Assembly: GCA_001820875.1 (NCBI GenBank)
Contig: MHRF01000004.1
Coordinates: forward strand, 17,434-81,433
Direction of reading: 5' to 3'
Length of the DNA stretch: 64,000 nucleotides
Source of the DNA: Candidatus Taylorbacteria bacterium RIFCSPHIGHO2_01_FULL_46_22b
GTDB taxonomy: Bacteria; Patescibacteriota; Minisyncoccia; Phycocordibacterales; DSPV01
Part shown: positions 48,587-50,539 of the stretch, in pieces
How positions within the stretch are numbered: position 1 is the stretch's first letter
How the letters are laid out: every line of letters starts with the position of its first letter
Position numbers and translations under genes: made by a program
Notes under the pieces: generated by a model
Database searches by the model: none
Seen by the model: the letters and a program-made list of their open reading frames with translations, nothing else
What the model was told of the DNA's origin: nothing

Positions 48587-50353
48587 ATGAAAACAAACTG
48601 TGTCATTTACTGTCGTGTATCATCACGAGAACAAGAGGAAACGGGATATTCGCTTGACGCACAAGAAAAACTCCTCAAAGAGTACGCGAGTAAGAAAACT
48701 TTCGGGATGGCTAAGACATTCCGGATTACTGAATCAGCAAGCGGCAAACAAATCCGAAAGACGTTCAATGAAATGCTTCAGTATGCGGTCCGAAATAAAA
48801 TCAACATAATCCTCTGCGAGAAAATAGACCGGCTCACAAGGAACTTGAAAGATGCGGCAACCATTAGTGACTGGATCAATGAAAATCCGGTCCATGAGAT
48901 TCACTTCGTAAAAGAAAACTTCGTAGTCAATAAAAATACCCGGGCTCATGAAAACCTTGTATGGGATATGAAAGTGGCTATAGCCCGCTTCTACACCAAC
49001 AACCTGTCGGAGGAGGTCCTAAAAGGTCAGAAGGAGAAAATATCGCAGGGCTGGCTTCCCCAAAAACCACCTCTTGGGTACCGAACTATCGGAGAGAAGG
49101 GACATAAAACTCATACTCTAGACGAAGAAAAGGCAATGTATATCCGTAAGGCGTTTGAGTACTATGGAACAGGCAATTATTCACTCAGGGCGTTACGCGA
49201 CAAGCTTTATGAAGAAGGATTACGAACGAGAGGTGGTAATATGCTCTCAAAGAGTCGGCTGGCGGAAATCCTAGGAGATCCGTTTTACTATGGAGCGATG
49301 CGATGGCGCGGTATCACATACCCAAACGGCAAGCACACTCCCCTTATCAAAAAAGAGCTCTTTGAGCAGGTCCAGTACTTGCTTACCAGAAAAGGTGCAC
49401 CCCATTACAAACGCCACATGTTCAAGTTCAGTAAGATGGTGAAATGCGGCGAATGCGGCGGAACTATCAATGGCGAAATACAAAAAGGGCACGTGTATTA
49501 CTCATGCAAGCACAGCCGAAAAATACCCTGCACCCAAAGGGGCATGACGAAGGAAGAGGACATGGAGAAAATGCTCATGGGGGTATTTCATTTCTTTGAG
49601 AATGTAACGTCCAAGGAGGCTGAAGAGATATACCAAAAAATCCGTGCTGACCACCAAGGGGAAGCAAACTATAAGGAAACAGCTTTGCATGCCTTGAATA
49701 CGCGTTATAACGCCCTCCAGAAGCAATTGGACATCCTTTACGATGATCGGCTCGCAGAGAGAATCTCACAGGAAAGATGGGAAAGTAAGCAAAATACAAT
49801 CAATACCGAACAGGCAGAAATACAGGAACAGGTAGCGAAGATAAAGAGCGAGGAGAGCAAGTATTTTGAGCTCTACATCAATATCCTAGACCTAGCCCGC
49901 AGAGCACGAGCGATATACGAAAAACGGTCCCCAGAGGAACGCAGACTACTCTTGAGCCACTTATTCGCAAACCTTACTCTAAAAAATCACAACGTAATTT
50001 ACGATCTCAAGGAACCGGTCCAAGTGCTGGCAAAGCGCGTGCAGGAAAAGCTAGACGCCGAGAAAATATTCGAACCAAAGCAAAACACCGCCGAAGCCTT
50101 TGCTTCTAGCGGTGATTTGCCAAACTCGTCATATATCCGTTCTGTGGGGCCTTCGGAAGTCCGAAATGATATTCGAACCTCAAGAAAGTCCCCAGTAAAG
50201 GCGCGACCCGGGCACTCTGGTGCCCACTTCACGCCCTCTGCTCCGCGGGTAGGATTCGAACCTACAACCAACTCCTTACACGTTTCCTTCTGTTACCAAA
50301 AGGCGTGGACTATATCATCACCGGTTCTCGGTGTGAGGCGCTTCCCCCACTAA
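48587..50353 (+). CDS. Large serine recombinase (phage-type serine integrase)
   Basis: N-terminal resolvase domain with catalytic Ser (YCRVSSREQ), recombinase domain, and a zinc ribbon (CGECGG...YYSCKH). The ORF reads through into the tRNA-Asn 3' exon, so the true 3' end is uncertain. Confidence 0.85.
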   Translation: MKTNCVIYCRVSSREQEETGYSLDAQEKLLKEYASKKTFGMAKTFRITESASGKQIRKTFNEMLQYAVRNKINIILCEKIDRLTRNLKDAATISDWINENPVHEIHFVKENFVVNKNTRAHENLVWDMKVAIARFYTNNLSEEVLKGQKEKISQGWLPQKPPLGYRTIGEKGHKTHTLDEEKAMYIRKAFEYYGTGNYSLRALRDKLYEEGLRTRGGNMLSKSRLAEILGDPFYYGAMRWRGITYPNGKHTPLIKKELFEQVQYLLTRKGAPHYKRHMFKFSKMVKCGECGGTINGEIQKGHVYYSCKHSRKIPCTQRGMTKEEDMEKMLMGVFHFFENVTSKEAEEIYQKIRADHQGEANYKETALHALNTRYNALQKQLDILYDDRLAERISQERWESKQNTINTEQAEIQEQVAKIKSEESKYFELYINILDLARRARAIYEKRSPEERRLLLSHLFANLTLKNHNVIYDLKEPVQVLAKRVQEKLDAEKIFEPKQNTAEAFASSGDLPNSSYIRSVGPSEVRNDIRTSRKSPVKARPGHSGAHFTPSAPRVGFEPTTNSLHVSFCYQKAWTISSPVLGVRRFPH

Positions 50354-50539
50354 TCATTTTGGGGTACTCCCTTTCGGGATAGTCTCTGAACCTTTCCCCG
50401 CCACCGCGGAGACTTGGCTGCTGATTGCCCTCCTTTCTTTTTGAAGGGTTTCCAGCAATTCACCTCATTATTCATCCCTAGATTCCTCTAAGGAGCTGCC
50501 TACTGACAGGGAGCTGCTCTACCGTTGAGCTACCGCGGA
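50241..50539 (-). tRNA. tRNA-Asn(GUU) interrupted by a 227-nt group I intron between positions 35 and 36; no encoded CCA
   Basis: Exons 50506-50539 and 50241-50278 assemble into UCCGCGG-UA-GCUCAACGGUAGAGC-A-GCUCC-CUGUUAA-GGAGU-UGGUU-GUAGGUUCGAAUCCUAC-CCGCGGA-G. Anticodon loop CUGUUAA and discriminator G are as in E. coli tRNA-Asn. Confidence 0.8.
50279..50505 (-). ncRNA. Group I intron (ORF-less) within tRNA-Asn
   Basis: P-like AAUUGCUGGAAAC, Q-like AAUCAGCAGCCAAGUC, R-like GUUCAGAGACUAUC and S-like GAUAUAGUCC elements. 5' exon ends in U with a GCAG IGS pairing to CUGU. The intron ends in G. Confidence 0.75.

Follow-up and report, generated by a model that had tools for sequence, protein, structure and literature searches.

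In the 64-kb stretch of DNA analysed here (64,000 nucleotides of contig MHRF01000004.1, hereafter 'the window'), the minus strand carries a tRNA-Asn gene that is interrupted in its anticodon loop by a group I intron. The 5' exon (tRNA positions 1-35; 50506..50539, 34 nt, TCCGCGGTAGCTCAACGGTAGAGCAGCTCCCTGT) ends in ...CUGU with U35 as the -1 nucleotide, while the 3' exon (50241..50278, 38 nt, TAAGGAGTTGGTTGTAGGTTCGAATCCTACCCGCGGAG) extends from U36 to the discriminator base G73 and encodes no CCA. The 227 nt in between (50279..50505) form a group I intron without an open reading frame (ORF), as supported by Rfam RF00028, a pair model and covariation; with its hairpins P7.1 and P7.2 it appears IA-like. 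A convergent gene for a large serine recombinase runs into the 3' end of the tRNA gene and stands at the edge of a putative mobile island, whose cargo includes a diversity-generating retroelement.

Structure of the split gene

Joining positions 50539-50506 to 50278-50241 on the minus strand gives a 72-nt spliced sequence, TCCGCGGTAGCTCAACGGTAGAGCAGCTCCCTGTTAAGGAGTTGGTTGTAGGTTCGAATCCTACCCGCGGAG, for which ARAGORN returns tRNA-Asn(GTT) with a full cloverleaf, a 7-bp acceptor stem and regular D, anticodon and T arms. The anticodon loop reads CUGUUAA and the discriminator base is G; the canonical tRNA-Asn claimed in a preliminary description of the locus, made from the sequence alone, was thus recovered. 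The gene starts with TCC and ends with GGAG, giving a U1-A72 pair and G73, and the same is seen in 91/91 homologs among the matches listed, all of which also have a first exon ending in CTGT. U1-A72 together with G73 is typical of the identity features of bacterial tRNA-Asn, unlike tRNA-Thr. With default settings, ARAGORN makes zero tRNA calls across the whole 64-kb window and misses the split gene, and no tRNA besides this one was detected within the window. Without splicing, the split gene yields no usable tRNA-Asn.

Aligned over all of its positions (1-253 of 253), the Rfam group I model RF00028 matches the minus strand at 50286-50519 with 86.5 bits (gathering score 50) and an E value of 1e-20, which is far beyond chance, and this match is the sole intron hit of Rfam within the 64 kb. 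The intron starts with C and ends with G (G227, position 50279); a terminal G, as noted in the preliminary description, is shared by 91/91 homologs among the matches listed. At 227 nt the intron is too short for a homing endonuclease gene.

All core elements P, Q, R and S quoted in the preliminary description were found in place in an explicit P1-P9 model, in which 66/66 pairs are standard on the window sequence. P1 is formed by the internal guide GCAG (intron nt 7-10; 50496..50499, minus strand like all intron features) and C32-U33-G34-U35, with G7·U35 as a wobble, and an additional C1-G6 pair of the intron can lengthen the helix. It is followed by the P2 hairpin with a GGAA loop (13-19/24-30; 50476..50493), in which 5/7 pairs show compensatory changes, and by the 5' strand of P3 (39-45/166-172). 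The P4-P5-P6/P6a domain (intron 49-116; 50390..50457) holds the P and Q elements and is composed of P4 (49-54/82-87), P5 (58-63/73-78), P6 (88-89/115-116) and P6a (94-100/105-111). The R element GUUCAGAGACUA (50380..50391) includes the 5' strand of P7, namely G120, the bulged A121 and G122-A126; P7 as a whole (120, 122-126/194-199) is the presumed guanosine-binding helix of group I introns. Next come P7.1 (UCCC-GAAA-GGGA; 127-130/135-138, with a GAAA loop) and P7.2 (142-146/157-161), which together make up an IA-type peripheral insertion (intron 127-161; 50345..50379). The segment 50307..50340 comprises the 3' strand of P3 (166-172), the P8 hairpin (173-187, pairs 173-177/183-187) and the S element GAUAUAGUCC, which includes the 3' strand of P7 (190-199). 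The P9 hairpin (203-220, pairs 203-209/214-220, GUAA loop) and the tail AAACGUG, ending in the omega-G, G227, complete the intron (50279..50303). The unconstrained minimum-energy fold of a 243-nt segment computed with ViennaRNA contains P1 stacked on the anticodon stem and all nested helices of the model.

The model was compared with a MAFFT alignment of the window intron and 38 ORF-less homologs. In these 39 sequences, 88 columns are invariant and 91.0% of the paired cells are standard; sliding the 3' partners by 1-3 columns lowers this figure to 34-44%, and shuffling the columns to 77.5%. Changes on both sides were found for 35 pairs, and the observed covariation score was reached by 0/500 shuffles. 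The covarying helices are P2, P3, P5, P6a, P7.2 (5/5 pairs), P8 and P9, while P4 is almost invariant. P1, P4, P6, P7 and P7.1 speak neither for nor against the model because of their invariance.

The four pairs of P1, including that of U35 with the guide as proposed earlier, are invariant in the 39 sequences. A guide could be placed in 82 of 92 homologous precursors surveyed; it reads GCAG in 75/82 of these loci among the matches listed and lies 36-38 nt upstream of a conserved GAATT. The register of P1 therefore rests on the invariance and the fixed position of the guide and not on covariation.

A described family of tRNA-Asn introns

The preliminary description knew of bacterial tRNA introns in four settings and of none in tRNA-Asn at position 35/36. 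The implied novelty, which reflects older literature, was not upheld. The four classical intron-bearing bacterial tRNA settings were extended to 21, with the tRNA-Asn 35/36 setting listed as 'Asn.4Ug' (Williams 2020, bioRxiv 10.1101/2020.01.27.920355), and introns at position 35/36 of tRNA-Asn(GUU) in Patescibacteria were described in Nakagawa et al. 2026, mSystems (PMC13011429). In the latter study, 4,934 complete genomes contained 28 introns at 35/36, 19 of them in Patescibacteria; 25/28 were classed IA, and no Patescibacteria tRNA intron was classed IC. The tRNA-Asn precursor of GCA_016700035.1 was shown to splice in vitro in a GTP-dependent manner, sequencing of the spliced product placed the excision exactly at 35/36, and a terminal G-to-C mutant of the intron was blocked in the second step and stalled after the first (PMC13011429).

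We aligned the window intron with six published introns taken from Table S3 of the same study (PMC13011429) and found 56-64% identity, the closest being that of the Paceibacteria genome GCA_016699245.1; the spliced homolog of GCA_016700035.1 is 56% identical. The aligned blocks shared by the window and the six published introns are GGCAGC, GGTGAATTGC.GGAA, AATC.GCAGCCAAG, GGTTCAGAGACTA, AGCGCC, GATATAGTCC and ..GTG/TAA at the 3' junction. The likeness to the published tRNA-Asn 35/36 family (PMC13011429) extends to the tRNA, the insertion point, the GCAG guide with its U35·G wobble, the ...GUG/UAA junction, the conserved blocks and the helices including P7.1 and P7.2, and even to a miscall by ARAGORN that exchanges Asn for Thr by a shift of 2 nt. 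Most members lack an ORF, as does the window intron, which shows no difference of kind and is among the shortest. P1 comprises 4 bp in the window intron and 6 bp in the experimentally spliced Saccharimonadia intron. Judged from its sequence, the window intron thus adds a further member to a family that is already described and validated by experiment, and is not novel.

Taken together, we conclude with high confidence that the locus represents a working tRNA-Asn(GUU) gene, most likely of a Patescibacteria (Paceibacteria-like) genome, that is split between U35 and U36 by an ORF-less, probably self-splicing 227-nt group I intron of the IA-type tRNA-Asn 35/36 family. The anticodon stem of the precursor (27-31 with 39-43) would remain paired and stack on the short P1, which is conceivable because P1 uses loop nucleotides 32-35 only. 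C32 to U35 would pair with GCAG, leaving U35 in the G·U wobble, and both exons would be kept at the active site by the anticodon stem. The first attack, on the bond after U35, would come from an external guanosine that sits in P7, presumably on the G122-C198 pair beside the bulged A121; G227 would then occupy the guanosine site, and the 3'-OH of U35 would attack after G227. Ligation of U35 to U36 would restore the anticodon GUU and free the intron. We infer this chemistry from the anatomy of the intron and from the validated homolog of GCA_016700035.1.

Could the gene be a relic?

Several observations weigh against a working gene. P1 has just 4 bp (5 with C1-G6), as in about half of the family, and its pairs are invariant and hence without covariation. 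GCAG is nearly always followed by C, a base that does not covary with exon base 31 (37/79 paired). No convincing P10 was found when the start of exon 2 was compared by eye with the bases 5' of the guide, which again holds for about half of the family; if the anticodon stem holds the exons, this may be the reason. A consensus scan revealed no convincing promoter upstream of the tRNA-Asn gene and no convincing terminator after it. The short P1 and the missing promoter and terminator consensus, together with the neighbourhood of a rearranged mobile island and a visible genome of 64 kb only, would also suit a decaying relic, i.e. a tRNA pseudogene with a non-splicing intron in a cell that obtains its tRNA-Asn from another gene.

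We nevertheless regard such a relic as very unlikely. The window intron is part of the alignment with 88 invariant columns and retains all model helices intact, while its exons form a perfect cloverleaf identical in 71/72 positions to uninterrupted tRNA-Asn genes of two other loci (L272, L274). The same split-gene arrangement is present in three independent European Nucleotide Archive (ENA) metagenome assemblies, none of which contains an empty-site variant. In published complete genomes, such split genes are often the sole tRNA-Asn copy (PMC13011429).

Asparagine or threonine?

A further alternative, to which we concede only a slim chance, assigns the gene to tRNA-Thr(UGU) with an intron of the same length at 33/34. 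Exon 1 would then end at U33, the intron at the G of position 50281 (...AAACG), and the anticodon loop would read CUUGUAA. This is the answer of ARAGORN in intron mode, tRNA-Thr(TGT) i(33,227), with the 227-nt intron moved 2 nt upstream, an ambiguity hidden from the preliminary description. Either placement has a U at -1, a G at the end of the intron and a 7-nt loop. Published homologs were treated likewise: ARAGORN and tFind often move the boundary by two bases, so that many received a Thr(UGU) 33/34 call, and the label 'Asn.4Ug' is cited in this context (PMC13011429). In our set, ARAGORN divides the same homologous genes between 'Asn 35/36' and 'Thr 33/34' calls.

The 5' splice site of group I introns comes right after a U that wobbles with G. 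Wherever the guide reads GCAG, its A is the Watson-Crick partner of U33 and its first G the wobble partner of U35, and this register of P1 is conserved. The terminal G demanded by the tRNA-Thr model is absent in 16/91 homologs, whereas the G before TAA is present in 91/91 among the matches listed. Uninterrupted genes point in the same direction. Metagenome contigs were scanned for genes that share the anticodon stem but lack an intron, with the two discriminating positions kept degenerate (GAGCAGCTCCCTKKTAAGGAGT). This gave 120 genes among the matches listed, of which 83 have the loop CTGTTAA, 37 have CTTTTAA and 0 have CTTGTAA; the 37 CTTTTAA genes are tRNA-Lys genes with unrelated acceptor stems. 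Only 13 intronless tRNAs were found in the genome loci, and none of them is tRNA-Thr, a number too small to discriminate the isotype. The near-identity of the predicted spliced tRNA to the uninterrupted tRNA-Asn genes mentioned above argues against tRNA-Thr as well and bears out the earlier claim of a tRNA-Asn(GUU) interrupted at 35/36, and U1-A72 and G73 fit tRNA-Asn by the identity rules. Finally, the junction of the sequenced spliced homolog lies at 35/36 (PMC13011429). For practical purposes, the tRNA-Thr reading is already refuted.

Subgroup of the intron

In the Michel-Westhof classification, peripheral hairpins inserted between P7 and P3' belong to subgroup IA. Based on P7.1 and P7.2 and on the published classification of its homologs, the window intron appears IA-like and not IC3, the direction in which the preliminary description had looked. 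That a classical IC3 intron of the cyanobacterial tRNA-Leu or Azoarcus tRNA-Ile lineage recently moved to a new tRNA-Asn setting has hardly any probability left. In its compactness and its R and S elements (GUUCAGAGACUA, GAUAUAGUCC), the window intron is similar to IC3 tRNA introns, but its P7.1 and P7.2 hairpins, placed ahead of P3', and the full-length homology to the published 35/36 set speak against such a move. Since at least 91 species-level genomes share both the intron and its site, the insertion is old and already catalogued. The classical IC3 introns, found in tRNA-Leu(UAA) at 34/35, tRNA-fMet at 33/34, tRNA-Arg(CCU) at 36/37 and Azoarcus tRNA-Ile(CAU), differ from the window intron in tRNA and position and lack its extra P7.1 and P7.2. 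Like the window intron, they are small, ORF-less group I introns of the anticodon loop with a U at -1 and a terminal G, and they are self-splicing, as is probable for the window intron; in both cases the anticodon stem can hold the exons, so that little or no P10 is needed.

Relatives and distribution

Scanning one genome per GTDB species with a 28-nt word covering the 5' strand of P7 and P7.1 (GGTTCAGAGACTATCCCNNNNGGGAGTA) yielded at least 119 loci. Almost all are metagenome-assembled genomes (MAGs) of Patescibacteria, among them Paceibacterota, Parcubacteria, Falkow-, Kaiser-, Moran- and Magasanikbacteria and Saccharibacteria. The pattern of an exon 1 ending in ...CTGT, an intron ending in ...G and an exon 2 starting with TAA..., with a tRNA start of TCC, TCG or TTC, was found in at least 91 species-level genomes. 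Among the matches listed, the introns range from 212 to 723 nt, which places the 227 nt of the window intron among the shortest, and 33/33 introns longer than 500 nt contain a sense ORF segment of 90 aa or more. The exact intron sequence of the window is not among the loci listed; its nearest relative there (L107, Ca. Paceibacterota) is 81% identical over 310 nt and shares 70/72 exon and 175/227 intron positions, and the next-closest are L098 and L041 (Ca. Paceibacteria). Proteins of the window are up to 75% identical to those of the fetched loci, almost all of them Patescibacteria MAGs, and the fmt-hpf-tRNA-Asn synteny points to Patescibacteria MAGs as well.

Little new biology follows from this, as the family was catalogued in 2020, validated experimentally in 2025-2026 and recovered here from raw sequence. 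The tRNA-Asn 35/36 family is, however, far larger than the 15 genes of the published complete-genome set. As the gene is missed by ARAGORN in default mode and mislabelled as tRNA-Thr in intron mode, tRNA censuses and genome-completeness estimates of Patescibacteria are distorted.

Several intron-bearing contigs (L083, L011, L016 and others) carry the MAG labels 'Woesearchaeota archaeon' or 'uncultured Gammaproteobacteria'. These archaeal and gammaproteobacterial labels are likely the result of mis-binning or placeholder names; a similar suspicion was raised for a Pacearchaeota bin (Williams 2020).

The P7-P7.1 word GGTTCAGAGACTATCCCNNNNGGGAGTA also occurs in 108 viral contigs of IMG/VR (L120-L227). 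In 105/108 of these, ARAGORN found no split tRNA around the word, and related IA-type introns are thus probably common in other phage genes. The viral group I introns share the P7-P7.1 word with the window intron and presumably interrupt genes other than tRNA genes.

A probable recombinase island at the tRNA 3' end

The convergent gene on the plus strand (48587..50353) encodes a large serine recombinase of 588 aa with Pfam matches to Resolvase (3.7e-24), Recombinase (2e-15) and Zn_ribbon_recom (1.8e-06). Its reading frame runs 113 nt into the opposite-strand tRNA gene, covering the whole 3' exon and 75 nt of the intron. Homologs of the recombinase in the same position and orientation, with the ORF reaching into the tRNA end, were found at 19/91 intron-bearing genome loci among the matches listed (e.g. 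L107, L108, L021, L010 and L090). Six more 'overlap' hits in intron-bearing loci were rejected as short antisense translations of the tRNA and not recombinases. Among the matches listed, 10/83 intronless metagenome loci, mostly Patescibacteria overall, likewise have such a homolog. The recombinase is therefore associated with tRNA-Asn and not with the intron, which suggests a recombinase lineage that targets tRNA-Asn. A literature search for serine recombinases at tRNA genes in Patescibacteria returned no papers.

That the adjacent mobile element had integrated at this tRNA, as stated in the preliminary description, is largely supported by the convergent recombinase, here and at about 29 other loci. 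However, no direct repeat of the tRNA 3' end was found in the window (29-mer, up to 3 mismatches), and the only other tRNA-derived sequence in the window is a remnant 11.6 kb from the gene in inverted orientation. This partial copy of the tRNA 3' end (38656..38700, plus strand) consists of TTCGAATCCTAC, matching in 12/12 positions, a 25-nt hairpin and CCGCGGAG (12 + 8 nt), and is a candidate for the far boundary of the recombinase island. The putative island is flanked by inverted copies of the segment from T-loop to 3' end, one intact on the functional tRNA and one interrupted by the hairpin. The remnant is preceded, about 100 nt upstream, by a TCCGCGG word and followed by a long hairpin. The larger segment 38551-38700 was also considered as a decayed copy of the whole tRNA-Asn and rejected; its part upstream of the T-loop aligns to the pre-tRNA no better than shuffled sequences do (57/300 reached or exceeded the score).

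Between remnant and tRNA, 11.6 kb hold genes typical of island cargo, namely Hypoth_Ymh, DUF3761, a weak SIR2-like match, the diversity-generating retroelement, a helix-turn-helix (HTH) gene, a terminase-small-like gene and the recombinase. Two further T-loop-like words (GGTTCGAATAT...) were observed at 50058-50076 and 50161-50179; read on the minus strand, GGTTCGAAT stands at 50068 and 50171. Located 62 and 165 nt past the tRNA end, within the 3' portion of the recombinase ORF, the two words could be arms of an attachment (att) site or relics of earlier events. In nine relatives among the matches listed (L009, L013, L031, L042, L047, L049, L058, L086 and L101), a second copy of the segment from T-loop to discriminator base lies 46-219 nt downstream of their own tRNA-Asn, in direct orientation in 7 cases and inverted in 2, and in several of them the identity starts inside the T-loop. 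These duplicate 3' ends look like footprints of past integration or excision.

What did the locus look like before? In L274, an intronless near-ortholog, fmt (+), the gene of a hibernation factor (-) and tRNA-Asn (+) are followed after about 1.2 kb by an OmdA-like gene, which is 74% identical to window positions 36682-36999. L323, another such near-ortholog, has a spacing of about 0.6 kb and an identity of 69%. The order fmt-hpf-tRNA-Asn-OmdA of these two empty sites is likely ancestral. The window has fmt and hpf at 13.6-15.3 kb, its OmdA-like gene at 36.7 kb and the functional tRNA-Asn, on the other strand, at 50.2 kb. Single inversions and insertions starting from the ancestral order, with orientations worked out by hand, were tried and dismissed, as none accounts for how the remnant is oriented, and a simple integration does not suit this orientation either. 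Further rearrangement is evident from the inversion of the remnant and the displacement of the flanks. We conclude that an island carrying the recombinase very probably uses the 3' end of tRNA-Asn for attachment and has its far end near 38.7 kb.

Integrases that target tRNA genes are usually tyrosine recombinases. The window island resembles the tRNA-integrated islands of tFind/TIGER and large serine recombinase elements of the phage-integrase type in that the recombinase gene lies at the island edge and abuts the tRNA 3' end; it departs from the usual tRNA-targeting in its large serine recombinase and in a tRNA remnant that is inverted and not direct. One might speculate that large serine recombinase elements of Patescibacteria use the palindromic T-loop of tRNA-Asn (TTCGAA) as attachment site and bring along a replacement 3' end, and that inversion driven by the recombinase could switch the intron-bearing, possibly sole tRNA-Asn between an intact and a broken 3' end. 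We consider this idea improbable; what the evidence supports is the recurrent association of recombinase and tRNA-Asn and not the switching. The recurrent pairing of tRNA-Asn with a convergent recombinase and the unusual geometry of the island may merit a study of their own.

The retroelement inside the island

A complete diversity-generating retroelement occupies positions 43766-46528 within the island. Its target ORF (43766-44605, plus strand) has no Pfam match and contains the variable repeat (VR, 44491-44600); the template repeat (TR, 44966-45075), bAvd (45123-45473, minus strand) and the reverse transcriptase gene (RT, 45452-46528, plus strand) follow. VR and TR are 83% identical over 110 nt, and 19/20 TR-to-VR mismatches fall on template adenines.

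Directly upstream of the target gene, Rfam identifies a LOOT RNA (RF03000, 86.9 bits) at 43324-43437 on the minus strand. Weinberg et al. 2017 do not mention this RNA in their main text, where 'Loot' occurs solely as the name of a cited author. Part of the LOOT RNA, 31 nt long, recurs with 90% identity as a direct repeat at 46590-46620, just past the RT stop codon, a copy for which Rfam gives no match at E = 1. LOOT-derived sequence thus flanks the retroelement cassette on both sides.

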